Source of the DNA: Candidatus Woesearchaeota archaeon
Lineage (GTDB): Archaea > Nanobdellota > Nanobdellia > Woesearchaeales > JABIAG01
Direction: 5' to 3'
DNA: 64,000 nucleotides
Assembly: GCA_018653365.1 (NCBI GenBank)
Contig: JABIAG010000001.1
Location: forward strand, 326,951-390,950
In this document: piece after piece, positions 23,258 through 60,805 of the stretch
How the letters are laid out: the number at the start of each line of letters is the position of its first letter
Position numbering within the stretch: position 1 is the stretch's first letter
Notes under the pieces: model-generated
The model's database searches: none
The model's input: only the letters and a program-made list of their open reading frames with translations
What the model was told of the DNA's origin: nothing
Translations under genes and position numbers: made by a program

Positions 23258-23353
23258 GCGGGCCCCACGAGATTCATGTCATCACTTCACTTCGTTTCGT
23301 TCTGGACGAATCTCTAAGTCCCTTAAAAGAATTTGGCGGGCCCCACGAGATTC
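23258..23353. repeat. 18-bp perfect direct repeat GCGGGCCCCACGAGATTC (copies at 23258-23275 and 23336-23353); the second copy is the 3' end of tRNA-Lys
   Basis: Both copies read directly from the sequence. att-core-like duplication of a tRNA 3' end, with 78-bp spacing. Confidence 0.7.
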
Positions 23354-23426
23354 GAACTCGCAACCTTCCGATTTCTTTTTTTAAAATTAAGAGTCGGATG
23401 CTCTAACCAGATTGAGCTAGAGGCCC
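23334..23426 (-). tRNA. tRNA-Lys (anticodon CUU) with an intron of about 15 nt at the canonical 37/38 position; CCA encoded
   Basis: Reverse complement folds as acceptor GGGCCUC/GGGGCCC, D-stem GCUC/GAGC, anticodon stem UCCGA/UCGGA with loop CUCUUAA interrupted by AUUUUAAAAAAAGAA, T-arm GCGAG-UUCGAAU-CUCGU, then GCCA. Confidence 0.8.
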
Positions 23427-47479: not shown

Positions 47480-48913
47480 ATGAGTAAAGATGAAAAAGGA
47501 ATCACTGCAGAAAAAGATGAGTTTTCAGAATGGTTTACCCAAATCATGCTAAAAGCAGATCTAGCAGATTACACCAAAGTATCAGGTTGTATAGTATTCA
47601 AACCAACAGCCTGGGCAATATGGGAGAAAATAAGAGATCTAGTAGATATACGTATGAAAAAAATGGGAGTACAAAATGTTAGTTTTCCCTTATTCATCCC
47701 AGAATCATTACTAGTAAAAGAAGAAGAACACGTAGAAGGATTTACTCCAGAAGTAGCCTGGGTAACACATACAGGAAAAACTAAATTAGCAGAACGGTTA
47801 GCTGTACGTCCTACTTCAGAAGCAATAATGTACGATTCATTCTCAAATTGGATAAGAAGTTGGAGAGACTTACCATTAAAATATAATCAATGGGCAAACG
47901 TAGTAAGATGGGAATTTAAACACCCTGTGCCTTTTCTAAGAACAAGAGAATTTCACTTTAATGAAGGACATACCGTATACGCAACAGAAGCAGAAGCCGA
48001 AGCAGAAAAAGATCAGGTATTAGGTATGTATAAAGACATCTGTGATAATTATTTGGCAATGCCCTCTTTAATCGGTAAAAAAACAGAAAAAGAAAAATTT
48101 GCAGGAGCAGTATATTCCTGCTCATTAGAACATTATATGCCAAATGGCAAGGCAATCCAGGGAGCAGCATTCCATTCTGATGGACAAAATTTTGCAAAAG
48201 CATATGAGATTAAGTTTGTAAATCAAAAAGAAAAAAGCGAATATGCCTGGCAAAATACCTGGGCAATTTCAACAAGAACATTAGGAATAGTGTTTGCATT
48301 ACACTCAGATGATAAAGGATTAATTATGCCCCCAAAAGTAGCACCAAATAAGGTAGTAATAGTACCAATCATATTCGCAGATACAAAAGACAAAGTACTT
48401 GGTAAAGCAAGCAGTATAAAACAAAAACTCGAAAAGTACGGCACAATATTAGATGATCGAGAAGAATACAAGCCAGGATTTAAATTTAATGAATGGGAAA
48501 TGAAAGGAATTCCAATCAGAATAGAACTAGGACCTAAAGACCTAGAAAAAAATTCAGTAATGATTGCAAGAAGAGATACTGGAGAGAAGAAGAGTGTTAA
48601 AATAGATCAGGTTGAGGAAGAGGTAGAAAAATTACTCGAAGAAATTCAGATTAACCTATTCAATAAGGCTAAAAAATTGTTAGATGAAGCACAAGTTAAC
48701 GTAACTGATCTGGCTGAACTAAAAAAAGCAATTAAAGATAAAAAAATAGCAATAGCCCCTCTTTGTAAAGAGACAAGATGTGAAGAAGATCTTAAATTCA
48801 AGACTGGGGGAGCAAAAGTACTAAACATCCCTGATGAACAACCTGCTAAGACCAAATGTGTGATGTGTGGAGAAGACTCAGACTATGTAGCTAGAGTTGG
48901 AAAAAGTTATTAG
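47480..48913 (+). CDS. proS: prolyl-tRNA synthetase (archaeal/eukaryotic type)
   Basis: Class II motifs. Archaeal-type architecture with a C-terminal zinc-binding domain. 477 aa. Confidence 0.85.
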   Translation: MSKDEKGITAEKDEFSEWFTQIMLKADLADYTKVSGCIVFKPTAWAIWEKIRDLVDIRMKKMGVQNVSFPLFIPESLLVKEEEHVEGFTPEVAWVTHTGKTKLAERLAVRPTSEAIMYDSFSNWIRSWRDLPLKYNQWANVVRWEFKHPVPFLRTREFHFNEGHTVYATEAEAEAEKDQVLGMYKDICDNYLAMPSLIGKKTEKEKFAGAVYSCSLEHYMPNGKAIQGAAFHSDGQNFAKAYEIKFVNQKEKSEYAWQNTWAISTRTLGIVFALHSDDKGLIMPPKVAPNKVVIVPIIFADTKDKVLGKASSIKQKLEKYGTILDDREEYKPGFKFNEWEMKGIPIRIELGPKDLEKNSVMIARRDTGEKKSVKIDQVEEEVEKLLEEIQINLFNKAKKLLDEAQVNVTDLAELKKAIKDKKIAIAPLCKETRCEEDLKFKTGGAKVLNIPDEQPAKTKCVMCGEDSDYVARVGKSY

Positions 48914-48969
48914 TTTTTCTAAAATTAATTTAAATAAAAAAAATGGGTGTTAAAGTACACCCTAAAACT

Positions 48970-49122
48970 TTACTTAGCATTACCTAATATTTTGTACATA
49001 CCACAATTACAAACAGAACATTTGCCTTTCATAGCATTTCTTCCATTTTTCATGGTTACTTTTGTTGCACTTGCCATTTCTCTTTTTTCTTTACATTTAA
49101 CACAATATCCTTCTTCAGCCAT
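48970..49122 (-). CDS. small zinc-ribbon protein (50 aa; CxxC...CxxC), not in the ORF track
   Basis: Translation MAEEGYCVKCKEKREMASATKVTMKNGRNAMKGKCSVCNCGMYKILGNAK. Antisense to the listed ORF 48947..49153. Confidence 0.5.
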   Translation of the reverse strand: MAEEGYCVKCKEKREMASATKVTMKNGRNAMKGKCSVCNCGMYKILGNAK

Positions 49123-49376
49123 GTATATCACCTTTATAGTTTATAGAGAATAGATAACTGGGTCATTTATAAATTTTTAGAAAAAACAAGGCCAAAAACG
49201 AAAAAATGAGTTGTTTCTTGTGAGTGGTGTGAAAGTTAATTTTTGATGTTTTGATCTAACAAATTTGTCTTTTTTTGTGGATTATTCTTACTTGGTAGTA
49301 GATGCAGTTTGATCACAACATTTAAATATAATATGGTTAGGTTAGGACTTGGGGTGAAAAGATTTACATAAGTTTA

Positions 49377-50303
49377 TTGTGGTTAATACTATCTTTAGTA
49401 GCTTTAGTACTAAGTAGTCATTGGATGGTAAAATCTTTAGTAATCATATCTCGCTTCTTAAGAATGAGTGAATTTTTAGCAGCCTATATAATCATGGCAA
49501 TTTCAACTTCTCTGCCCGAGCTGTTTATAGGAATAAATGCGGCAATAAACCTGAATTCTTCTCTCTCACTGGGAAATGTAATCGGTGCAAATTTAGTTAA
49601 TTTATCTCTTGTAGCGGGAATTGGGTTAATTTTTGTGGGGAAGTTTACAGTAAAATCAAAAGAGATCAAACGTGATTCTCTACATATGTTCTTTATAGCA
49701 TTAGTTCCCTTGTTTTTGATGATTGTTGGGGGAGGACTGTCAAGAATTGATGGGGCAATATTAGTTTTTATCTTTGTAGTGTATAATTATTTGTTAATAA
49801 AAAAACAAGCAGCGCATACCAAATTACTTGAAAATCATGTAAAAAAATATCAGATGATTATCGCACCAGTTATTTTTGTTGGATGTTTGTTATTATTATT
49901 TGGAAGTTCACACTTTGCAATATTATTCGCATTAGAGGTATCGGGTGGGTTAGGTGTGCCAGCAATCTTAATTGGATTAGTTTTATTGGCTTTAGGAACA
50001 ACCCTTCCAGAACTATCCTTTACCTTGAGTTCTTTTATGAGCCATCATGGTGAATTAAGTTTAGGTAATCTGGTTGGATCCGTAATTACTAATTCAACGT
50101 TGGTTTTAGGAATTACTGCAATGATCTTTCCAATAGTTGCAGGATTTTTCACGTTTTTAATCGCATCATTGTTTATGGTGTTCGCGTTGTTCTTATTTGT
50201 GACTTTTATTGGTAGTGGAAAGTTGGGATATAAAGAAGGCATGTCTTTAGTGGGATTGTACGTGTTATTTATAATAATTCAAATATATGTTAATGTTTTA
50301 TAG
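49377..50303 (+). CDS. second CaCA-family cation/Ca2+ exchanger
   Basis: Alpha-repeats STSLPELF and GTTLPELS. 10 TM. Confidence 0.65.
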   Translation: MWLILSLVALVLSSHWMVKSLVIISRFLRMSEFLAAYIIMAISTSLPELFIGINAAINLNSSLSLGNVIGANLVNLSLVAGIGLIFVGKFTVKSKEIKRDSLHMFFIALVPLFLMIVGGGLSRIDGAILVFIFVVYNYLLIKKQAAHTKLLENHVKKYQMIIAPVIFVGCLLLLFGSSHFAILFALEVSGGLGVPAILIGLVLLALGTTLPELSFTLSSFMSHHGELSLGNLVGSVITNSTLVLGITAMIFPIVAGFFTFLIASLFMVFALFLFVTFIGSGKLGYKEGMSLVGLYVLFIIIQIYVNVL

Positions 50304-50451
50304 TCATATGTTGTGACTATAATGGGTGCAAGATGAAACTATGTTGGTTTCAGGGTGTTGCTTAAATAGTTATTGGTTGGCACCTAAATAGCTACAGGTT
50401 ATGACTATAAATCAAAAGGTTTAAAAGAGAAATCAGGTTAATTGAACTAGA

Positions 50452-50685
50452 ATGAAAAGAACTTACGACAAAATACGGAAATCAATCCTTGCAGCAATTG
50501 ATGGACCGCAAAAAATAATAAATGAAATTGCTAGAGTATCTAAGGTTAATTGGAAAACAGTACAAAGACATCTAACCTATTTTAAAGGAATGGGATTCAT
50601 AGAAGAAACATTCTCTTCACCGTATGTAAGAATATTTGAAATAACCGAAAAAGGAAAACAGGAGTTAAAAGAATGGAAATCCTAA
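50452..50685 (+). CDS. small winged-helix DNA-binding protein
   Basis: 77 aa. wHTH-like ...IINEIARVSKVNWKTVQRHLTYFKGMGFIEE. Overlaps the downstream glycogen synthase by 13 nt. Confidence 0.5.
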   Translation: MKRTYDKIRKSILAAIDGPQKIINEIARVSKVNWKTVQRHLTYFKGMGFIEETFSSPYVRIFEITEKGKQELKEWKS

Positions 50686-51875
50686 TGTTTGGATGGGAAT
50701 TTCCTCCAATGAAATCAGGGGGGTTAGGAACTGCTTGTTATGATCTATGTAAGGGTCTGTTTAAACAAGGAACCAAGGTAACTTTTGTAGTTCCAAGACT
50801 GCCCAAAACAATAAAAAGTAACTTTGTAAAATTATTAGGCGCAAATCAATATGCTAAATTAACTGAAGTGGATTCAATACTAACACCGTACATGACATCT
50901 AACCAATATTTGGATGTGTACGATAATCTTGATGTTGCAACAAAACAAAACTATGGGAAAAATCTTTTAGCTGAGGTAAAAAGATATACTCAAGCTGCAA
51001 TAAAGATAACTGAAAATGAAAATTTTGACATAATACATGTACATGACTGGATGACCTATGAAGCAGGACAGATCGCAAAAGAAAAATCAGGAAAGTCACT
51101 AGTTGCACATATTCATGCAACAGAGTTTGATCGAACAGGGGGCAATCCTAACATGGAAATTTCCCACAAAGAATATTTGGGATTGAATGCAGCAGATATG
51201 ATAATTGCAAACTCGGAATACACTAAAGATAATGTAATCAAAAACTATAAGGTCGATGCAGATAAGTTACGAGTTGTACACTGGGGAATAGCTGAAGACA
51301 GCCCAAGCTATCATTTGAATGCAGAATCTCCATTTAAAGACAGTAAAGTTGTTTTATTTTTAGGTAGAGTGACGATACAAAAAGGACCTGACTATTTTGT
51401 TGATATGGCAGAAAAAGTAAAAAAATACGTACCAAATGTTAAGTTTGTTTTTGCAGGAGATGGAGACATGTTTCCAAAAATTGTAGATCAGGTAATGGAA
51501 CGAGATCTAGCTGAGAATTTCGTATTCACTGGATTCTTAAGGGGAGAAGACGTACATAAAGCATTTCAAATGGCAGATTTATACGCAATGCCCTCTGTAT
51601 CTGAACCGTTTGGGTTAGTAGCACTAGAATCAATAAAAAACGGAACTCCTGTTTTGCTCTCAAAACAATCAGGAGTTGCAGAAGTATTAACCAATGCCTT
51701 TAAAGTTAATTTTTGGGATGTAGATGAAATGGCAAATAAAATAGTTTCATTTCTTAACCATCCTGCATTAAGTCATGATCTAAAAGCAAACACAATTGAA
51801 GAAGCAAAAGGATTTAATTTAGATGACCCTGCCAAAAAATGTTTGGACTGTTATGACGAGGTAAAAAAATGGTAG
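50673..51875 (+). CDS. glgA: archaeal-type glycogen synthase (GT5, Pyrococcus GS-like)
   Basis: FGWEFPPMKSGGLGTA (KxGGL motif) and SEPFGLVALESI match the P. abyssi glycogen synthase. Confidence 0.65.
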   Translation: MEILMFGWEFPPMKSGGLGTACYDLCKGLFKQGTKVTFVVPRLPKTIKSNFVKLLGANQYAKLTEVDSILTPYMTSNQYLDVYDNLDVATKQNYGKNLLAEVKRYTQAAIKITENENFDIIHVHDWMTYEAGQIAKEKSGKSLVAHIHATEFDRTGGNPNMEISHKEYLGLNAADMIIANSEYTKDNVIKNYKVDADKLRVVHWGIAEDSPSYHLNAESPFKDSKVVLFLGRVTIQKGPDYFVDMAEKVKKYVPNVKFVFAGDGDMFPKIVDQVMERDLAENFVFTGFLRGEDVHKAFQMADLYAMPSVSEPFGLVALESIKNGTPVLLSKQSGVAEVLTNAFKVNFWDVDEMANKIVSFLNHPALSHDLKANTIEEAKGFNLDDPAKKCLDCYDEVKKW

Positions 51876-53086
51876 ATATATGTTTTTATTTTCAGGTACA
51901 CCAACCCTTTAGAATGAAAAAATACTCTATTTTTCAAATAGGTAATGATGAAAAATATTTTGATTCAACAAAAAATCAAGAAATAATGCAAAAAGTAACA
52001 AAAAAATGTTATTTACCAACAAATAAATTGATGTTAGAACTTTTAAGAAAACATCCCGAATTCAAAATTGCATACTCCATTTCTGGAACTGCAATAGATC
52101 AATTTGAAAAATATAGTCCTGAAGTATTAGATACATTCAAAGAGCTAGCAAAAACAAAACAAGTTGAATTCTTGGATGAAACATACCACCATAGCTTGTC
52201 ATTTTTATACTCTAAAAAAGAATTTTACGACCAAGTAGAAATGCACACCCAGAAAATGCAAAAACTATTTGGAGTAAAACCCAAAGTTTTCAGAAACACC
52301 GAGTTAATATATAATAATGAACTTGCAGAATACGTAGAAAAAATGGGTTATAAAGGAATACTTGCCGAAGGTGCAGATCATGTTTTAGGCTGGAAAAGTC
52401 CGAATTTCTTATATCAACCAAGAAATACAAAAAAAATAAAATTATTATTAAAAAATTATAAATTAAGTGACGATATCGCATTTAGATTCTCAGATAAATC
52501 CTGGCCCGAACATCCACTTACAACAAAAAAGTTCGGGGGTTGGTTAAACAAAGTAAATGGAAATGGAATCTGTGTTAACTTATTTATGGATTATGAAACG
52601 TTTGGAGAGCATCAGTGGAGCGACACAGGAATATTCAAATTTATGAAAGGTTTACCTGCAGAACTATTAAAGCATCCTGATAACCAGTTTAAAACTCCGC
52701 TGGAGGTAGTAAACAGTCATGAAGCAGTAGACGAATTACATGTACCTCACACTGTAAGCTGGGCAGATACTGAACGAGATGTTTCAGCATGGTTAGGAAA
52801 CAAAATGCAACAAGCAGCAATATCTCGACTATATGCAATAGAAGAAGAGGTAAAACAATCAGAAGATAAAAAATTACTAGAAACCTGGAGAAGATTAACA
52901 ACATCAGACCATTTTTACTATATGTGCACTAAATGGTTCTCAGATGGAGATGTACACAAATACTTTAATCCCTATGAAACCCCCTACGATTCATTCATAA
53001 ACTTCATGAATATACTAAACGACATGCTTATCAGACTTAAGACTTCAAATTCACAAACAGGGATAGAAAAAGCTAAAGTATATTAA
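51869..53086 (+). CDS. glycoside hydrolase family 57 protein (alpha-amylase/glucanotransferase-like)
   Basis: N-terminal FQVHQP motif. DYETFGEH acidic catalytic region. Confidence 0.55.
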   Translation: MVDICFYFQVHQPFRMKKYSIFQIGNDEKYFDSTKNQEIMQKVTKKCYLPTNKLMLELLRKHPEFKIAYSISGTAIDQFEKYSPEVLDTFKELAKTKQVEFLDETYHHSLSFLYSKKEFYDQVEMHTQKMQKLFGVKPKVFRNTELIYNNELAEYVEKMGYKGILAEGADHVLGWKSPNFLYQPRNTKKIKLLLKNYKLSDDIAFRFSDKSWPEHPLTTKKFGGWLNKVNGNGICVNLFMDYETFGEHQWSDTGIFKFMKGLPAELLKHPDNQFKTPLEVVNSHEAVDELHVPHTVSWADTERDVSAWLGNKMQQAAISRLYAIEEEVKQSEDKKLLETWRRLTTSDHFYYMCTKWFSDGDVHKYFNPYETPYDSFINFMNILNDMLIRLKTSNSQTGIEKAKVY

Positions 53087-53114
53087 TGAGAAAAATAAAA
53101 AGAATAAAAAAGAG

Positions 53115-53573
53115 GTGAAAATGGCAAAGAAAACAGCAAAAAAAACTGCCAAAAAGAGTTCTAAGAAGAAAGTAGTCCGAAAACCAAAGAAAGCAGCAAA
53201 AATTGTAAAAAAGGTAAAAGTAAAACTTGTTAAGAAAAAAGTGGCAGCTAAAAAAGCTAAAACTCGAGTTGCAGTAACCGTAACAAGAAAAAGATTAGGA
53301 ACTGCACCCGAAGAATACCATTTTGTATTAAATGACGGGAATCGACTGAAAAACATACAGGAATTAACTGATGCTCTAGAAACAATGAGTGAAGATGTAT
53401 TCAAATATCACGCAAATGAATTCAAAAACGATTTTGCAAATTGGATCAGTGATGTGTTTGAGGAAAGCGATTTAGCAGAAGAAATAAAAAAAGCAAAGAG
53501 CAGAATAGAAACAAGAATAAAACTCTTGCAACGATTAGTAGATGAAGTAGTAAAACAAGGAAGAAAAAAATAA
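53115..53573 (+). CDS. protein with histone-H1-like lysine-rich N-terminal tail plus a helical C-terminal domain; hypothetical
   Basis: The first 55 aa are more than 50% Lys/Ala (AKKTAKKTAKK...). Sits inside the glycogen cluster. Confidence 0.4.
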   Translation: MKMAKKTAKKTAKKSSKKKVVRKPKKAAKIVKKVKVKLVKKKVAAKKAKTRVAVTVTRKRLGTAPEEYHFVLNDGNRLKNIQELTDALETMSEDVFKYHANEFKNDFANWISDVFEESDLAEEIKKAKSRIETRIKLLQRLVDEVVKQGRKK

Positions 53574-53585
53574 AAAAAGAGGGTT

Positions 53586-55385
53586 ATGATGAGTGAAAAG
53601 GCAAATGCAGATATATTACTAGAAGTAAGTTGGGAAGTTTGTAATAAAGTTGGTGGAATAAACACGGTTATTAAATCAAAAACTCCCCGAATACTTGAAC
53701 AGTATGGAGATAAAAAATATATTGCCATAGGCCCATATTTTGCAAATAAAGTTGCTGGAGAGTTCGAAGAGCTTCCTCACCCAAAAACATTTCACAAAAT
53801 ATGTAATGATCTTGAAAAAGAAGGAATAAAGTTACATTTTGGAAAATGGCTCATAAAAGGCGAACCTAAAACAATTCTACTAGATTTTCAAGATTATCTC
53901 AAGGCTGGAGACCAAATAAAAAAAGAGTTATGGGAAAAAAATGGCATAGATTCATTACGATCAGGATCAGATTATGGAGACCCCTTAATCTGGGGATATG
54001 CTGTAGGAAAGGTAATACAAAAAATAACTACTATTTTTCCAGACAAAAAATTAGTTGCACAATTCCATGAATGGCTAGCAGGATCAGCACTACTTTATCT
54101 AAAAAATAATAATGTTAAAATCTCAACCGTGTTCACAACACACGCAACAATACTTGGAAGAACACTAGCATCAAGCAATGTGGATCTGTATAAATATATC
54201 AAAAAATTTGATCCAACTAAAGAGGCATACAATTATGGAATAGAAGCCAAATTTTTACTGGAAAAGCAAGCAGCACAAAAATCAGATGTGTTTACAACAG
54301 TATCAGAAATAACAGGAATTGAAGCACAATACTTACTTGGTAGAAAGCCAGATGTCTTATTACCTAACGGATTAGACATGGAAAAATTTCCTACTTTTGA
54401 AGAAGCATCAATACAACATAGAATTACGAGAAACAGAATAAAATCTTTCTTATCATACTACTTTTATCCCTATTATCAAGTTAATATGGGTGATGTGCTA
54501 ATATACTTTTTAGCAGGAAGATACGAATTTAAAGATAAAGGAATAGATGTTTTCATCTCAGCATTATCAAAATTAAATGCTAAAATGAAAAAAGATAAGG
54601 TTAAAAAAACGGTAGTAGCATTCATTTGGGTTCCTGCAGATGCAGAAGCAATTAAACAACAAATTTTGATTAACAAAACAAACTTTGGGGATATAAAAGA
54701 CGAGCTAGCGGATGAAATGTCAGAAATAAATGAACGAATAATGTTTAACATATTAGCGGGTAAAGAGATCAAAACTAGTACTATTTTTGATTCTGCATTT
54801 ATTGCAACAACCAAGAAAAAAATAATGAAGTTTAAAGCAAAAGGTAACCCTGCAATGTCAACACACACATTGAGAAATAAAAATGACATAATCTTAAAAG
54901 AATTAGCAAAAGCAGGACTAGACAATTCTGAAAAAAATCCAGTGAAAGTAATATTTTATCCAATATATTTAACTGGAGCAGATGGTTTGCTGGACTTGAA
55001 CTATTATGAATGTATGCAGGGAAGTCATTTGGGAGTGTTCCCATCATTTTATGAACCCTGGGGATATACACCACTAGAAGCAGGAGCACTAGGCACAAGT
55101 TCAGTAACAACAGACCTAGCAGGATTTGGAAGATACATACAAAAAACTAAACTCAACCCAAAAACTCCCGGCGTTTTTGTACTAGAACGTGAAGGAAAAA
55201 GTGATGAAGCAATAAGTAATTCTTTAACTGACCTTATGTTCAAGTTTGCTAACTTTACTCGACATGAAAGAGTACAAAATAAAATTAATGCAAAAGCCAT
55301 AGCTGCGAAAGCAGATTGGAAATTTTTAATTAAAGAATACATCAAAGCACATAATTTAGCATTGAGGAAGATAGATTGGACCTAA
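53586..55385 (+). CDS. glycogen synthase, eukaryotic-like GT3 family
   Basis: N-terminal EVSWEVCNKVGGINTVIKSK, matching the GT3 glycogen synthase motif EVAWEVANKVGGIYTV. 599 aa. Confidence 0.8.
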   Translation: MMSEKANADILLEVSWEVCNKVGGINTVIKSKTPRILEQYGDKKYIAIGPYFANKVAGEFEELPHPKTFHKICNDLEKEGIKLHFGKWLIKGEPKTILLDFQDYLKAGDQIKKELWEKNGIDSLRSGSDYGDPLIWGYAVGKVIQKITTIFPDKKLVAQFHEWLAGSALLYLKNNNVKISTVFTTHATILGRTLASSNVDLYKYIKKFDPTKEAYNYGIEAKFLLEKQAAQKSDVFTTVSEITGIEAQYLLGRKPDVLLPNGLDMEKFPTFEEASIQHRITRNRIKSFLSYYFYPYYQVNMGDVLIYFLAGRYEFKDKGIDVFISALSKLNAKMKKDKVKKTVVAFIWVPADAEAIKQQILINKTNFGDIKDELADEMSEINERIMFNILAGKEIKTSTIFDSAFIATTKKKIMKFKAKGNPAMSTHTLRNKNDIILKELAKAGLDNSEKNPVKVIFYPIYLTGADGLLDLNYYECMQGSHLGVFPSFYEPWGYTPLEAGALGTSSVTTDLAGFGRYIQKTKLNPKTPGVFVLEREGKSDEAISNSLTDLMFKFANFTRHERVQNKINAKAIAAKADWKFLIKEYIKAHNLALRKIDWT

Positions 55386-56308
55386 GACGAGATTATTTTT
55401 TGGATAGATGGGTAATTATTAATCCTAAAAGAGGATTAAGACCACATCAGTTTACACATAAACCGAATCCAGGAAAAGCAAAAAAAGATTATTTTGCACC
55501 AGGAAATGAAATGACCACCCCAATGGAACTTGGGAGAGTTGGAACGGATAAAAAATGGGAAATAATGTGGTTCATGAATAAATTTCCAGCAGTACAAACA
55601 GACGGGGATTACACTATTCAAAGACACAACAAGTTTTACACTTTTTCTGCATCATACGGGTGGCACGAAGTAATCGTTGAAACACCTTCAGGAACAAAAC
55701 AATTATACAGTTTTACAAAAAAACAAGTAATGAAGCTATTGCGCGTGTATCAACAAAGGATCAAGGACGTACGTGGAAAAGAGGGAGTCAAATATGCCTC
55801 TCTGTTTAAAAATCATGGACCTGATGCAGGAACATCAATCGCGCACTCACATTCACAATTAATCGGCTATAATTTAGTGCCTGAAATAATAAAGCAAAAG
55901 TTAAAAAAATCACGAAAACACGGAAAGTGTTTGTATTGTGAAGTAATAGAGGCAGAAAAAGATTCTGATCGAAGATGTTTTGAAAATGAAATGTTTATAG
56001 CCTTTACTCCTTACGCATCTAGATTTAATTATGAAATTTGGCTAATGCCTAAAAAACACATATCTGACTTTAGTAAGTTAAATCCTTGGCAACTAGACCA
56101 ATTTTGTGATATATTTATGTTAATCTTAAAGAAATTAAAGAAAATAGGGTGTAGCTTTAATTTTTACTTTCAAAATTATGGCAAAATGCACTTTCATGTC
56201 GAGTTTTGTCCACGTATAGCAACCTGGGCAGGATTTGAATTTTCAACAGACACAATTATTAACTCAATGTCACCAGAAGAAGCAGCAAAGTTTTATCGGG
56301 ATAAATAA
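55376..56308 (+). CDS. galactose-1-phosphate uridylyltransferase-like HIT-family nucleotidyltransferase
   Basis: Zn Cys pair CLYCE. HIT-like AHSHSQL motif. 310 aa. Confidence 0.6.
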   Translation: MDLRRDYFLDRWVIINPKRGLRPHQFTHKPNPGKAKKDYFAPGNEMTTPMELGRVGTDKKWEIMWFMNKFPAVQTDGDYTIQRHNKFYTFSASYGWHEVIVETPSGTKQLYSFTKKQVMKLLRVYQQRIKDVRGKEGVKYASLFKNHGPDAGTSIAHSHSQLIGYNLVPEIIKQKLKKSRKHGKCLYCEVIEAEKDSDRRCFENEMFIAFTPYASRFNYEIWLMPKKHISDFSKLNPWQLDQFCDIFMLILKKLKKIGCSFNFYFQNYGKMHFHVEFCPRIATWAGFEFSTDTIINSMSPEEAAKFYRDK

Positions 56309-56323
56309 TTTTTTGGGGGAATT

Positions 56324-58033
56324 ATGAAGGTAACTTACAAACTAGGACAGCATGCCCTTTCTAAAGAAGGCAACGGAAACTTACTTTTAACTAATTCAAA
56401 AGGGGGATTTCTTAATTTAGGCCAGCCAACATCTAAGTTTCAGGGCTGGTTCATAAAAGATTCTGGAGTGTTTAAAATACTTGAAGAAATTAAATTAGAG
56501 GGAGAGGTTAAAGAGCTTATTAGTGAAGTATACCAAATAAAGCGTAAGAAAAGTGTTACAGAAAGTTATATGCTACCTAAAAACTTTAATTCATTAGTTT
56601 ACGAACTTAGTAAAGAGAGCGAGGTAGAATTAGTATTTGATGTACGAAAAGCATACGATCTTTCTGAAGAGGGAAGAGAATATAAACTAGATAAATACGG
56701 GAAAAAAATAATTCTTTGTTATCCAAAAGAAAAGATTTACGTTGTTATCGGGAATGTTAGTAAGTTTGAAGAAAAAAATGAATGGAAGGAATATGCGTAT
56801 TTAGAAGATGAAAAAAGAAATTCCCCTCCCTTCTCAAGATATAATTATCTTGCACTGAAGTTCAAATGTAAAAAAATAGTAATAACTGCAGGATGTAATA
56901 GAGTAAAAGTATTAGAAGAAAACGAACTAATCTTAAAAGACTTAAATAAAATAAAAAAAGCAGAAAAAAATTCTGTTAAACTTGTTTCTAAAGCTAAAAA
57001 GAATTTTGCAGTTAATCTAGCATCCAATTCAGTACTTGGACTTGTTGTAGAAGAGGGGATATACGCAGGGCTTCCTTGGTTCTTTCAAAAATGGACAAGA
57101 GATGAAATGATCTCACTCAAGTCACTAACATTAATTGGAGAAGAACAACTAACCAAAAAAATATTATTAGAACGAATAAAACAAATTAATAGCAATGGAA
57201 GGTTGCCAAACCGAATAGGGTTAGATGGGCTGGACTCTGCAGACTCAATAGGCTGGATGTTTCTACGATTTAATGATGTAATGAAATTACTTGATAAAAA
57301 AGAAAAAGAATTACTGAAAGTAGGATTAAAAAATTCAATAGAATTGATAATCAAAAACTATCATTTACACGGATTTTTTGTTAATGGACCAAAAGAAACC
57401 TGGATGGATACAGACTTTGGAGGAGATGTGCGGGGAGGGGTTCGTATTGAGATACAAGCACTAATGATAAACATGTTTGATCTTACGTTTAAGTTAACTA
57501 AATCTCAAATTTATGGAAAGCTACGTGATAGTTTAATACATAATGTTAAAGAGAAAATGTTTGATGGCATGTTACACGATGGAGCAGGGGACAGGACTGT
57601 ACGTCCAAACGTGTTTATTGCGTATTATGTTTATCCCAAATTGTTAAGTAAGAAAGAGTGGGGTATAGTTTTTGAAACTGCTTTAGATAAATTATGGTTA
57701 GACTGGGGTGGACTGAGTACAATAGATAAGAATAATTTATTATTTTGTTCCGAATACACTGGTGAGGATAATAAAAGTTATCATCGAGGGGATAGTTGGT
57801 ATTGGATAAATTGTTTAGCTGCAGTATGTATGCTAAAAGTTAATAAGAAAAAGTTCAAAGCATATGTTGATATGATATATTCTGCTACTGAACAGAATAT
57901 TTTGTTGCAAGGTGGATTGGGATGTTGTTCGGAAGTAAGTTCTGCTTCTAGTCAGACTGCAGATGGTTGCTTAAACCAAGCCTGGAGTAACGCAATGTTT
58001 ATAGAGTTATGGAAAGAACTTAATAAAAAATGA
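56324..58033 (+). CDS. glycogen debranching enzyme (amylo-alpha-1,6-glucosidase, GDE C-terminal-domain type)
   Basis: GLPWFFQKWTRDEMISL matches the GDE signature. (alpha/alpha)6-like length. Confidence 0.65.
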   Translation: MKVTYKLGQHALSKEGNGNLLLTNSKGGFLNLGQPTSKFQGWFIKDSGVFKILEEIKLEGEVKELISEVYQIKRKKSVTESYMLPKNFNSLVYELSKESEVELVFDVRKAYDLSEEGREYKLDKYGKKIILCYPKEKIYVVIGNVSKFEEKNEWKEYAYLEDEKRNSPPFSRYNYLALKFKCKKIVITAGCNRVKVLEENELILKDLNKIKKAEKNSVKLVSKAKKNFAVNLASNSVLGLVVEEGIYAGLPWFFQKWTRDEMISLKSLTLIGEEQLTKKILLERIKQINSNGRLPNRIGLDGLDSADSIGWMFLRFNDVMKLLDKKEKELLKVGLKNSIELIIKNYHLHGFFVNGPKETWMDTDFGGDVRGGVRIEIQALMINMFDLTFKLTKSQIYGKLRDSLIHNVKEKMFDGMLHDGAGDRTVRPNVFIAYYVYPKLLSKKEWGIVFETALDKLWLDWGGLSTIDKNNLLFCSEYTGEDNKSYHRGDSWYWINCLAAVCMLKVNKKKFKAYVDMIYSATEQNILLQGGLGCCSEVSSASSQTADGCLNQAWSNAMFIELWKELNKK

Positions 58034-58965
58034 AACTCGGAAGTCTAACAGTTAAAAACAAATTTCTTTTAGCACCAATGGATATGTATGCAGATAGTGC
58101 ATTTCGTAAATTATGTCATGATTATAACTGTGGATATTCTTGTACTGAATTAATCGCGACAGCAGGCTTTATACGTAAAAATGAAAGCTTTAGACGAAAA
58201 GTTGATCTGCACGTTAAAGGTGGGTTACAATTTGTTACTAATTCTACTTCTGAACTAAAAGAATCCATAAGAATAGTAAACGAAAAAGAATTTTATGCAG
58301 GATTAGGTAATGTAAATTGTATAGACATTAATTTAGGATGTCCTTCCCTGAAAATGATGAATCAGAATATGGGCTCAGCATTACTAAACCAACCAAAATT
58401 AGTTCGTTCATTGTTTAAGGTAATGAAAAAACATTCTTCTCTTTCTGTATCTGCTAAGATTCGTTTAGCTATTAATTCCAAACACAAAAAACAATCCAAA
58501 CCTTATCTGAAAATAGCACAAATAGCAAAAGAAGAAGGCATAGATTTTATTATAGTTCATGGTCGAACAGCTGGACAAATGTACTCGGGAGAGGTAGATG
58601 TTGAGGCAATTAAAGAGTTGAGTGAAAAAGTAGATATTCCGTTAGTTGGAAATGGGAATATAATTGATGAAGAAAGTTGTAACAACTTTGAATTTTGCGA
58701 TGCCGTAATGATTGGAAGAGAGGCACTGAAACGACCGTTCATATTTTCATTGTTACAGGGTAAAAAGTTTGATGATGAAAAAGAGAAGAAAAAATGTGTT
58801 AAACAGTATTTGAAGTATGCAAAAGAGTTAGATACTGGATTTCAACACATAAAAATTCACACTCAAGCATTTTTGAGAGGAATAGAGGGAAGTAAAGAGA
58901 TCATTCGTGCACTAACTCATACAAAAACACTTGAAGATATTAAAGAATGCCTAAAACAACTATAA
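58030..58965 (+). CDS. tRNA-dihydrouridine synthase-like TIM-barrel flavoprotein
   Basis: LAPMDMYADSAFRKLC is Dus-like. Has the conserved Cys region. Confidence 0.55.
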   Translation: MKLGSLTVKNKFLLAPMDMYADSAFRKLCHDYNCGYSCTELIATAGFIRKNESFRRKVDLHVKGGLQFVTNSTSELKESIRIVNEKEFYAGLGNVNCIDINLGCPSLKMMNQNMGSALLNQPKLVRSLFKVMKKHSSLSVSAKIRLAINSKHKKQSKPYLKIAQIAKEEGIDFIIVHGRTAGQMYSGEVDVEAIKELSEKVDIPLVGNGNIIDEESCNNFEFCDAVMIGREALKRPFIFSLLQGKKFDDEKEKKKCVKQYLKYAKELDTGFQHIKIHTQAFLRGIEGSKEIIRALTHTKTLEDIKECLKQL

Positions 58966-60462: not shown

Positions 60463-60714
60463 TTAGTTTAACTCCTTTAATTGTTTTTCGATTTCTTCTT
60501 GTTCTGCGTTGAGTTCAGCAAGTTCAGCTTCAAGAATTTTTTTCTTTTGTTCAGAACTAAATTCTATGGTTCTGGCAAAACCTCGACCAAAACCTCTTCC
60601 TCTACCGCAAGGTCCAAATCCTCGTCCACGAGAAAGTGCACCTTCACAATTTCCGAGTTGTCTTCCTGTTAATTTTCCTTTACCGGCAGGGCCGGTTCCA
60701 TCTAATCTTGGCAT
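60463..60714 (-). CDS. DUF5320-family protein (Gly/Arg-rich N-terminus, coiled-coil C-terminus)
   Basis: MPRLDGTGPAGKGKLTGRQLGNC... N-terminal signature. GGAGG Shine-Dalgarno sequence 9 nt upstream. Start taken at the internal Met, not the ORF-track 60792. Confidence 0.55.
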   Translation of the reverse strand: MPRLDGTGPAGKGKLTGRQLGNCEGALSRGRGFGPCGRGRGFGRGFARTIEFSSEQKKKILEAELAELNAEQEEIEKQLKELN

Positions 60715-60730
60715 TTTATTTTTCCTCCGT

Positions 60731-60805
60731 TTATTTACATGGGCCTTTTTTTCGCCCTGTTTTTGGTCCTTCTCCATCTGGTCCTGTTCCATCTCTATTT
60801 GGCAT
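60731..60805 (-). CDS. 24-aa upstream mini-ORF duplicating the DUF5320 N-terminal motif (MPNRDGTGPDGEGPKTGRKKGPCK)
   Basis: 35-bp direct repeat of SD + start + first codons (60691-60727 vs 60791-60828). Own GGAGG. Stop lies 17 nt before the main start. Confidence 0.3.
   Translation of the reverse strand: MPNRDGTGPDGEGPKTGRKKGPCK

Follow-up and report, generated by a model that had tools for sequence, protein, structure and literature searches.

Within the 64-kb stretch of DNA analyzed here (the window), seven consecutive genes on the + strand are preceded by a repeat-containing region and followed by a gene for a tRNA-dihydrouridine synthase (Dus), as listed below.

50298-50410, no strand: candidate operator/promoter region 5' of the wHTH gene, from a repeat search
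50452-50685, + strand: wHTH gene, encoding a 77-aa winged-helix protein (Pfam HTH_45, 4e-6)
50673-51875, + strand: GT4-like GT-B enzyme, 400 aa, retaining, with an N-terminal KxGGL motif
51869-53086, + strand: GH57, 405 aa (Pfam PF03065, 5.1e-77, full-length)
53115-53573, + strand: Lys-rich OrfY/DUF5752 protein (Pfam DUF5752, 7.6e-7)
53586-55385, + strand: GT3 glycogen synthase, 599 aa (Glycogen_syn PF05693, 3.3e-155, residues 13-596)
55376-56308, + strand: GalT-like HIT-superfamily enzyme, 310 aa (GalP_UDP_transf, 6e-12)
56324-58033, + strand: amylo-alpha-1,6-glucosidase (GDE_C/GH133), debranching, 569 aa (Pfam PF06202, 2.1e-30)
58030-58965, + strand: Dus (Pfam Dus, 3.8e-54)

An initial annotation had described the seven genes as a glycogen metabolism island; its observations were confirmed in part and its interpretation is partly supported. 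All seven open reading frames are present on the + strand, the wHTH gene does overlap that of the first synthase, by 13 nt, and Pfam backs six of the seven gene labels, the exception being GT5 for the first synthase. The reading as a glycogen-metabolism operon is supported, and intergenic gaps or overlaps across the cluster are all ≤34 nt. Dus shares its first 4 nt with the end of GDE and is probably co-transcribed with the glycogen operon, but it is outside the conserved glycogen cluster and was not found at the corresponding position in the clusters of relatives. The term island, in the sense of recent import, is not supported, as GC content is flat over the window and the synteny of the flanking ProRS and Na/Ca-exchanger genes is kept in one relative.

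We compared 80 related loci, with DUF5752 counts taken over 76 loci and with 26 loci bearing GT3. The conserved order is GT4-like - GH57 - DUF5752 - (DUF5752 paralog) - GT3 - (NTP_transferase or GalT-like) - GDE, and in 54 of the 76 loci the gene immediately before DUF5752 is GH57. The presence of two synthases, originally regarded as unusual, is in fact the rule within DPANN and CPR, where the GT4-like and GT3 pair occurs in 23 of the 26 GT3-bearing loci, and K00693 turns up in 68 of the 123 complete genomes of Woesearchaeales. The window GT3 has more than 100 DPANN homologs with 54-63% identity. GT3 in DPANN has also been published (PMC11046441; Chem Rev 2024, section 3.4), and where that review deals with these enzymes it puts them near those of PVC and eukaryotes, raises the primer question and handles them phylogenetically as a long-established clade with Bacteroidetes sequences nested inside. 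The cluster is the standard glycogen-storage gene set of Woesearchaeota-type DPANN, in which GT3 is already documented.

The first synthase had been taken for an archaeal GT5 enzyme, an identity that we reject. Its N-domain matches Pfam GT4 and GT5 equally (76.8 and 73 bits), its score is far under the NCBIfam GlgA cut-offs, NCBI names it GT family 4, and its structural model is closest to GT4 enzymes, so that it is better described as GT4-like with a KxGGL motif. The GT4 family is functionally very diverse. The best PDB sequence match is GlgM, a maltose-1-phosphate synthase, and no GlgE was seen. We propose that this enzyme is an alpha-1,4-glucan synthase and/or primer synthase, which would make alpha-1,4-glucan de novo and probably supply the primer needed by GT3, glycogenin being unknown from these organisms; what points to the primer role is co-occurrence only. 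Three clusters (L007, L034, and L082) contain the GT4-like, GH57, DUF5752, and GH15 genes without GT3, which suggests that the GT4-like enzyme can work as a glucan synthase alone.

The second synthase is a genuine eukaryote-type GT3 enzyme, as originally proposed. It aligns end-to-end with human GYS1 (3e-118; 34.5% identity over 585 positions) and yeast Gsy2p (2e-117), and this full-length alignment, the PF05693 match and the catalytic residues exclude a coincidental N-terminal motif in a protein of another GT family. We tabulated residues in 47 prokaryotic GT3 sequences using human numbering and the residue roles of GYS1 (PMC9287172). The catalytic R331, K337, E510, and E518 are found in all 47. 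In the glucose-6-phosphate (G6P) pocket, R582 is kept in 46 of the 47 and H501 in 43, R586 is replaced by K in 46, and position 301 (K in human) is R or K in 46, whereas the phospho-sensing arginines (R580, R588, and R591) show no conservation across the set, in which lengths are 562-620 aa. Judged by its sequence, the window GT3 is full-length with intact catalytic residues and a retained G6P pocket, and is without phospho-regulatory tails. It would elongate chains and, because the pocket is kept, is probably activated by a sugar phosphate, while phospho-regulation of the eukaryotic kind would be impossible. In what PMC11046441 says of archaeal GT3 enzymes, there is no biochemistry for any of them.

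The GH57 protein is of the short, alpha-amylase-like type, with Glu145 aligned to Glu123 of the T. litoralis 4-alpha-glucanotransferase (1k1w), and is a candidate branching or trimming enzyme acting on the glucan polymer. The GDE_C/GH133 gene is present in 22 of the 80 related loci, where it usually closes the cluster, and its product would debranch the polymer in mobilization. The GalT-like enzyme matches Arabidopsis At5g18200 (PDB 1z84/2h39) over its full length with 2e-37, compared with 1e-12 for classical GalT, and bioRxiv 10.64898/2026.09.13.751320 cites At5g18200 as an ADP-glucose phosphorylase. The slot between GT3 and GDE is occupied by the GalT-like gene here and by NTP_transferase in other genomes. 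NTP_transferase is found in nine loci, GalT-like in five, and both together in none, a count that is not significant because the chance expectation is ∼1.7 co-occurrences; positional equivalence carries more weight than mutual exclusivity. We propose that the GalT-like enzyme interconverts NDP-glucose and glucose-1-phosphate (glucose-1-phosphate + NDP ↔ NDP-glucose + Pi), and that it would thereby take the role of the pyrophosphorylase of relatives, although it could equally work in catabolism.

Upstream of the wHTH gene is a perfect palindrome, TTATAGTCA-N7-TGACTATAA, at 50298-50322, and a second copy of its 23-nt unit, 78% identical, is located at 50388-50410, ∼42 nt before the wHTH ATG. There are three copies of TGACTATAA in the window, all within 50298-50410, and it is this clustering that matters, as the count alone is not significant. 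In a profile search the wHTH protein shows, besides the HTH_45 match, which is above the cut-off, a weak similarity to the Sso10a family, and in at least 12 of the 80 related loci the gene immediately before the GT4-like one encodes a homologous small wHTH protein. The wHTH protein is a probable transcriptional regulator of the operon, possibly acting via the palindromes, which we infer to be a candidate operator.

The Lys-rich protein consists of a disordered basic tail (∼residues 1-60; 53115-53294) and a single DUF5752 domain (∼residues 61-152). It is 100% identical to HN592_02710 (Ca. Woesearchaeota archaeon; 1.11-Mb contig), and as the NCBI protein has 150 aa the true start is likely the ATG at 53121. 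The tail contains 48% Lys over 50 residues, compared with at most 28% in the other ORFs of 140 and a proteome mean of 9%, and the first 57 residues of the protein include 24 K and 2 R with zero D/E. The Lys-rich tail of the initial annotation is therefore real and far above background, but it is K/V/A/T-rich rather than nearly pure Lys/Ala, and the histone-H1-like designation fits the tail composition alone, as the folded part is OrfY/DUF5752 and not a linker-histone winged helix. Of the two suggested tail ligands, a polyanionic glucan is chemically wrong, as glycogen is not a polyanion, while nucleic acid, probably bound non-specifically, is supported by the basic, D/E-free composition. In most archaeal orthologs the tail has 30-60% K+R and almost no D/E, five contain an AT-hook-like RKRGRP(P/A)K, and one (P0153) has an HhH motif instead. 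The CPR and some DPANN versions are nearly tailless, so the tail is accessory.

The DUF5752 domain is built of alpha-helices, which sets it apart from nearly all known carbohydrate-binding modules, and in the structural comparison of the head no match apart from OrfY gave a functional clue. It is often in tandem duplicate, including in OrfY, and is outside any glycogen context in 22 of the 76 loci. Its fusion partners include both halves of a split transketolase (L073, L010), TrxR-like flavoenzymes, a HerA/FtsK-like ATPase, and a FlaC-like coiled coil, and one protein (P0296) combines the domain with a coiled coil and a C-terminal membrane anchor. These fusions fit a tethered or recruited module, and those to non-glycogen enzymes count against a strictly glucan-specific role. 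The Lys-rich protein would be a non-enzymatic accessory within the operon, whose single OrfY/DUF5752 head may recognize either the glucan itself or one of the glycogen enzymes, GH57 being the likeliest. We consider it most likely a tether or adaptor for placing the glycogen machinery, which would parallel the granule-associated proteins discussed below.

Taken as a whole, we consider it likely that the region is an operon for alpha-glucan (glycogen) storage, typical of the Woesearchaeota/Nanoarchaeota-type DPANN lineage and also found in CPR, that works as proposed above, Lys-rich tether included; the model builds on observed gene identities and synteny, from which its biochemical steps are extrapolated. 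The idea that the cluster chiefly scavenges or degrades host or environmental alpha-glucans instead of serving the cell's own storage, with GH57, GH133, and the NDP-glucose phosphorylase being catabolic, would suit the mostly host-dependent DPANN archaea, the three hydrolase or phosphorylase genes among the seven, and the GH15 glucoamylase added in some relatives, but it is improbable given that the same operon conserves two synthases, that no signal peptide or membrane anchor was noted on its proteins, and that GT3 catalytic and allosteric residues are strongly conserved. Even less credible, and largely refuted, is an unusual island combining an archaeal GT5 with a GT3 recently acquired from eukaryotes. 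The full-length identity to GYS1 and the use of GT3 and GH133 types by animals and fungi might suggest it, yet the window has no compositional anomaly, synteny with distant relatives extends over the cluster and its flanks, the DPANN homologs are numerous and are handled in the phylogeny of PMC11046441 as an old, Bacteroidetes-containing clade, and the first synthase is not GT5.

Two other explanations concern the Lys-rich protein itself. DUF5752 could be a protein-protein pairing module, in which case the protein would serve GH57, or a different enzyme of the operon, as a regulatory or assembly subunit, and the tail would be a roleless low-complexity appendage of an AT-rich genome. OrfY as an internal tandem duplication, the two or three tandem DUF5752 genes of many genomes, the domain on both transketolase halves, which suits heterodimerization, its tightest linkage being to GH57 and not GT3, and the dispensability of the tail in CPR all fit, and we view this as a possibility worth keeping in mind. 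However, the glycogen enzymes of the window all lack a DUF5752 domain with which the protein could pair, the tail stands out strongly in composition from the background, and its replacement by an AT-hook or HhH in orthologs indicates selection for nucleic-acid binding. Basic tails, AT-hooks, and HhH motifs are all means of binding DNA, and with the deposition of OrfY (4cso) under the label 'transcription factor' and enzyme fusions that suit a small-molecule-sensing domain, they could instead point to a transcription factor or one-component sensor-regulator in which the domain senses a sugar or sugar phosphate and the tail, AT-hook, or HhH touches DNA; this we regard as doubtful. A tether within a storage operon is the reading that we prefer.

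Several known systems resemble parts of this operon. The window GT3 has the same fold along its full length as GYS1/Gsy2p (CAZy GT3, PF05693) and matches them in the residues for catalysis and for binding the phosphate of glucose-6-phosphate. Phosphorylation tails at the N- and C-termini and the phosphoserine-sensing arginines R580, R588, and R591 are missing from it, and it has no known glycogenin partner. At5g18200 (GalT branch, HIT superfamily) is the best structural-database relative of the GalT-like enzyme over its whole length and has the same conserved HSHSQ active-site motif, but its N-terminal CxxC is D..A in the window protein, in which one metal site is probably missing. The archaeal and DPANN clusters described in PMC11046441 likewise contain GlgA-GT3 and a 'GT4?' of unclear role beside GH57 and GH133, with no glycogenin; as far as that account of the clusters goes, it brings up neither a DUF5752/OrfY gene nor an HIT-type NDP-glucose phosphorylase standing where the pyrophosphorylase would, nor the G6P-pocket conservation or the occurrence of the operon in CPR.

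The conserved small protein with the histone-like lysine tail is apparently the sole unreported part of the cluster. Its folded domain is that of OrfY of Thermoproteus tenax (PDB 4cso; Pfam DUF5752). OrfY contains the repeat twice in tandem and is without a basic tail, whereas in the window protein the repeat is single and is accompanied by a Lys-rich tail of ∼60 residues. With linker histone H1 it shares a Lys-rich disordered tail free of acidic residues but not the H1/H5 winged-helix globular domain, its fold being DUF5752. H1-like tails are also known on the storage-granule proteins PhaF/PhaM (PHA) and AlgP (polyphosphate; PMC3574117, PMC7590123, PMC9239181). There is no sequence or fold homology to these, the tail of the window protein is N-terminal, and binding of DUF5752 to glycogen is putative, so the likeness is one of analogy only: in each case a polymer- or enzyme-binding part is joined to a disordered Lys/Ala-rich nucleic-acid-binding tail and encoded beside storage-polymer genes.

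The glycogen genes of the window form a compact cluster of seven, in which every gap or overlap between neighboring genes is ≤34 nt, and a Dus gene follows directly:

50452-50685, + strand, wHTH protein
50673-51875, + strand, 400-aa GT-B glycosyltransferase (the GT4-like enzyme)
51869-53086, + strand, GH57 enzyme
53115-53573, + strand, Lys-rich protein
53586-55385, + strand, GT3 glycogen synthase
55376-56308, + strand, GalT-like enzyme
56324-58033, + strand, GDE_C/GH133 debranching enzyme
58030-58965, Dus, overlapping the stop codon of the GDE_C/GH133 gene by 4 nt

All seven open reading frames of the initial annotation were found at these coordinates, and its account of the locus is essentially right except for the family label of the first synthase (GT5) and the suggestion that the Lys-rich protein might bind a "polyanionic glucan," a chemically wrong premise for glycogen. 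The term "island" is also not borne out, as base composition is flat over the whole window (GC ~33%) and the cluster is therefore not marked as a compositional island. HN592_02710, from Candidatus Woesearchaeota archaeon, shares 100% identity with the Lys-rich protein, and the nearest homologs of both synthases bear the names Woesearchaeota or Nanoarchaeota. No pyrophosphorylase, GH15, or second DUF5752 gene is present within the 64-kb window. The ProRS and Na/Ca-exchanger genes located 5′ of the cluster (47480-50303) occur in the same order at a related locus (L001:2986-5562; L008 and L001 are one contig) despite protein identities of only ~50-64%, and hence the operon has long occupied this place in the chromosome. 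Elsewhere in the window, a tRNA-Lys(CTT) gene (23334-23426, − strand) was called at 93 nt, with an Rfam match of 90 nt on a 71-position model, which exceeds the standard tRNA length and may reflect an intron or extension. A 109-aa open reading frame (60463-60792, − strand) has a Lys/Arg-rich N-terminus followed by an RG-rich stretch (GRGRGFGPCGRGRGFGRGF) and a coiled-coil-like tail.

The second synthase is a genuine member of family GT3. It matches PF05693 with 518.7 bits (cut-off 27, E = 3.3e-155) over residues 13-596, corresponding to profile positions 1-586 of 639, and it aligns end-to-end with human GYS1 (3e-118, residues 10-595 on chain residues 28-615, with 34.5% identity across 585 positions) and with yeast Gsy2p (~1e-118), so that a coincidental N-terminal GT3 motif is excluded. 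Animals and fungi rely on GT3 and GH133 for their glycogen, hence the interest in the origin of both families and in how GT3 is primed. A 2024 Chem Rev review (PMC11046441) records GlgA-GT3 from DPANN and from some Euryarchaeota, places the DPANN sequences close to those of PVC bacteria and eukaryotes with Bacteroidetes nested within DPANN, and shows "GT4?" genes adjoining GH57 and GH133 genes. The review also states that no glycogenin could be found in DPANN and that archaeal GT3 has no characterized member, and it asks where GT3 and GH133 originated and how a chain is started without glycogenin. The GT3-type KO K00693 is present in 68 of 123 complete Woesearchaeales genomes (2026 preprint). 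Hence the combination of two synthases, one of them of eukaryote type, that was initially regarded as an unusual island is already published and is common in this lineage. What is known of GT3 in DPANN is not altered by the operon but is sharpened into testable statements.

One such statement concerns regulation. We aligned 47 DPANN and CPR GT3 sequences with human GYS1, for which the roles of individual residues have been described (PMC9287172). The catalytic residues R331, K337, E510, and E518 (human numbering) are invariant in all 47 prokaryotic sequences, and the window enzyme contains the equivalents of the E-x7-E pair (E510/E518), of the GRYE Arg (R331), and of the catalytic Lys (K337). 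The residues that contact the phosphate of glucose 6-phosphate (G6P) are also retained, with R at position 582 in 46 of 47 sequences, K at 586 in 46, R or K at 301 in 46, and H at 501 in 43, and the predicted G6P pocket of the window enzyme comprises R559, R562, K566, R282, and H481 (human R579, R582, R586, K301, and H501, respectively). The phosphoserine-sensing residues R580, R588, and R591 are unconserved among the 47 prokaryotic sequences. These proteins are 562-620 aa in length, from which it follows that both phosphorylated tails are missing in all of them; the window enzyme stops four residues past the aligned core and lacks the N- and C-terminal phosphosite tails together with R580, R588, and R591. 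The features of phospho-regulation belong to the eukaryotic subfamily and not to GT3 as such, and the sugar-phosphate allosteric site is probably older than eukaryotic phospho-control, a prediction that is directly testable.

The assignment of the first synthase to GT5 did not hold up. The Pfam N-terminal models of GT4 and GT5 score about equally (76.8 vs. 73 bits), TIGR02095 (GlgA) gives 80.7 bits against a cut-off of 328, PRK00654 models give 43-48 bits against cut-offs of 459-616, and the protein is named GT family 4 by NCBI. GT5 enzymes are not its closest structural neighbors; GT4 members are closest in both sequence and fold. A profile of the 26-sequence GT4-like family matches GlgM (GT4) with 112 bits over residues 116-405 and the Pyrococcus abyssi GlgA (GT5) with 102 bits, the latter being the only full-length alignment of the two. 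The N-terminus carries a KxGGL motif (GWEFPPMKSGGLG), of which K14, G16, G17, and L18 do not vary among 33 homologs, and this nucleotide-sugar motif is typical of glucan synthases of the GT5/GT3 kind. Taken together, these results lead us to term the enzyme GT4-like and a probable α-glucan synthase. Three clusters (L007, L034, and L082) contain GT4-like, GH57, DUF5752, and GH15 genes without GT3, suggesting that the GT4-like enzyme can serve as the sole synthase.

The operon is widely conserved. Going outward from the Lys-rich protein, which contains a DUF5752 domain, to four homologs of increasing distance, we found the same neighborhood each time, and a scan of species-representative genomes starting from a 12-sequence alignment yielded 80 loci, the open reading frames of which were annotated by phmmer with the window proteins as queries. 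The recurrent gene order is (wHTH), GT4-like, GH57, DUF5752, (DUF5752 paralog), GT3, (NTP_transferase or GalT-like), and GDE. In 54 of the 76 evaluable loci the gene immediately upstream of DUF5752 is GH57, and GT4-like, GT3, and GDE genes are found at 42, 26, and 22 loci, respectively. A GT4-like gene is present at 23 of the 26 GT3 loci, and two of the three exceptions are on contigs that end at GH57; hence two synthase families in one operon are the rule here rather than an oddity. Because a GT4-like synthase almost always accompanies GT3, it is the obvious primer candidate.

Six of the loci are from CPR/Patescibacteria (L034, L048, L049, L056, L057, and L059), in Woesebacteria, Saccharibacteria, UBA6102, Jacksonbacteria, Paceibacterota, and Minisyncoccales. 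Five of them show the GT4-like, GH57, DUF5752, GT3, GDE order, in full or in the part that is visible, and the CPR GT3 enzymes are 44-50% identical to that of the window. This suggests that the whole cluster is shared between domains, by DPANN archaea and CPR bacteria, and would add to the instances of genes held in common by these two ultra-small radiations; the literature that we searched contained no mention of the operon in CPR. A locus from Candidatus Altiarchaeales (L043) has DUF5752, GT3, and GDE, but neither GH57 nor a GT4-like gene lies within 9 kb; it is both an exception to the GH57 linkage and an occurrence of GT3 beyond DPANN sensu stricto. Many loci of DPANN-type content, including L008, L010, L015, L016, L018, and L019, are titled "uncultured Methanosarcinales archaeon" (TPA assemblies), and the organism labels of such records look unreliable. 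Several relatives contain a gene of ~360 aa, in either orientation, between GT3 and NTP_transferase (L031:11980-13074, L054:6916-7992, L055:12555-13688, L085:5729-6802, and L041:5501-6574), which had no Pfam match except for a weak ATP-grasp in L031 and may be another uncharacterized component of the cluster. No phosphoglucomutase was found between GT3 and NTP_transferase in the relatives, where Pfam gave an ATP-grasp-like match, an NT5C match, and unknowns.

GH57 matches PF03065 with 259.5 bits, and its E145 aligns with E123, the catalytic nucleophile Glu of 1k1w. GH133 matches PF06202 with 106.3 bits (cut-off 21) and falls below the cut-off of the archaeal hypothetical equivalog TIGR01561 (48.7 vs. 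364 bits). The GalT-like enzyme, the gene of which has a TTG start and a 10-nt overlap with the stop of GT3, has the two-domain GalT fold, a GalP_UDP_transf match of 46.8 bits (cut-off 22.1), and HSHSQ as its HxHxQ active-site motif, but it scores below the models for true galactose-1-phosphate uridylyltransferases (TIGR00209, 86.4 vs. 102.1 bits; PRK11720, 93.6 vs. 448). Among solved structures it is matched best, along its entire length, by Arabidopsis At5g18200 (1z84/2h39; 2e-37), compared with only 1e-10 to 1e-12 for classical GalT structures, and At5g18200 is described as an ADP-glucose phosphorylase in a preprint (bioRxiv 10.64898/2026.09.13.751320). The N-terminal CxxC of At5g18200 is replaced by D..A in the window protein, so one metal site has probably been lost, whereas the GKCxxCE farther along is retained. 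The GT3-GDE slot is occupied in relatives by a GalT-like gene at five loci and by an NTP_transferase of the sugar-nucleotide pyrophosphorylase type at nine, and the lack of any locus with both is not significant on its own, as ~1.7 co-occurrences are expected by chance. Their positional equivalence suggests that both serve the NDP-glucose pool. Supply of NDP-glucose by a phosphorylase-type HIT enzyme in place of a pyrophosphorylase may thus occur, and would save an NTP in energy-poor symbionts.

The Lys-rich protein is a conserved component of the operon. Its tail reaches 48% Lys in a 50-residue stretch, its first 57 residues include neither Asp nor Glu, and the tail is a strong compositional outlier, which rules out ordinary low complexity of an AT-rich genome. 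The initial description of the protein as histone-H1-like holds for the composition of this tail and fails for the remainder, since no Pfam match to the H1/H5 winged-helix globular domain was obtained and the folded domain matches only OrfY, the DUF5752 protein of Thermoproteus tenax. The domain scores above the DUF5752 cut-off with the fold seen in 4cso, and covers only profile positions 9-85; it is a single-repeat variant, whereas OrfY and the 208-position Pfam model represent two tandem repeats. In many genomes the second repeat is a separate adjacent gene, unlike in the window. Our literature searches returned nothing on DUF5752 or OrfY; orfY is presumably linked to treT. A role as a glycogenin-like acceptor of glucosylation was rejected, as none of the conserved positions is an invariant Tyr, Ser, or Thr.

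Across orthologs the tail ranges from 0 to >60 residues, being nearly absent in CPR, and is basic throughout (K+R 30-60%, almost no D/E). The DUF5752 genes that follow GH57 at L041, L054, L055, L071, and L085 encode, instead of a plain Lys-rich tail, one with an AT-hook-like RKRGRP(P/A)K, and the homolog P0153 has an HhH motif (PF14520) upstream of the tail, at the same end. With three non-specific DNA-binding devices in the same position, the best reading of the tail is that it would bind nucleic acid. The DUF5752 domain itself is found in ~3,650 clusters at 50% identity (E ≤ 1e-3), often tandemly duplicated within one chain or as adjacent genes. DUF5752-like domains are also fused (L010:14528-15697, L073:8983-10095, L046:3023-4168, L050:7968-9137, L072:5101-9234, and L084:5424-6614) to the N- and C-terminal halves of a split transketolase, TrxR-like flavoenzymes, a 1377-aa HerA/FtsK-like ATPase, and a FlaC-like coiled coil. 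P0296 combines two DUF5752 repeats with a coiled coil and, at its C-terminus, a transmembrane anchor, and the high-scoring long DUF5752 proteins contained no further Pfam domains.

Four aspects of the operon appear to be unreported, namely the conserved DUF5752/OrfY accessory gene with its tail variants, the putative exchange of a phosphorylase for a pyrophosphorylase in the same slot, the family-wide retention of the predicted G6P pocket, and the occurrence of this operon among CPR bacteria. They are modestly interesting and directly testable.

For the Lys-rich protein we favor, by analogy, a "head-on-a-tether" function, in which the DUF5752 head would recognize the glucan or a glycogen enzyme, GH57 being the tightest genomic partner, and the basic tail would anchor the protein to nucleic acid. 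PhaF and PhaM of PHA granules and AlgP of polyphosphate granules, each with a histone-H1-like tail, are comparable only in architecture and operon context and share no homology with the Lys-rich protein. A role of the Lys-rich protein as a sensor-regulator is a live rival, but its reading as a transcription factor is disfavored by the dedicated and conserved wHTH gene of the cluster and by a candidate operator upstream of that gene:

50298-50410, perfect 9-nt palindrome TTATAGTCA-N7-TGACTATAA together with a second 23-nt copy, upstream of the wHTH gene

The second copy is located 88 nt downstream of the palindrome, and TGACTATAA occurs at only three sites in the 64-kb window, all of them in the palindrome and the second copy. 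That the Lys-rich protein is purely a pairing subunit is likewise a live rival to the tethering function.

A bolder extension of the tethering function, which we regard as speculative and rather unlikely to hold as a whole, is that DUF5752/OrfY is a hitherto overlooked, all-helical module by which DPANN and CPR recognize α-glucan or the glycogen machinery, and that the GT4-like enzyme is the long-sought stand-in for glycogenin, priming GT3 in prokaryotes. DUF5752 heads would be attached to the nucleoid by Lys-rich, AT-hook, or HhH tails, to the membrane by transmembrane anchors, and to enzymes such as transketolase by fusion, and the tethered heads would organize glycogen particles and recruit metabolism to them. 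If DUF5752 does organize glycogen particles, no factor of this kind would have been described in prokaryotes before it, and it would represent a prokaryotic counterpart both of the CBM20/CBM48-based scaffolding of glycogen by Stbd1 and AMPK-β and of the granule-nucleoid tethering of the PhaF/AlgP type.
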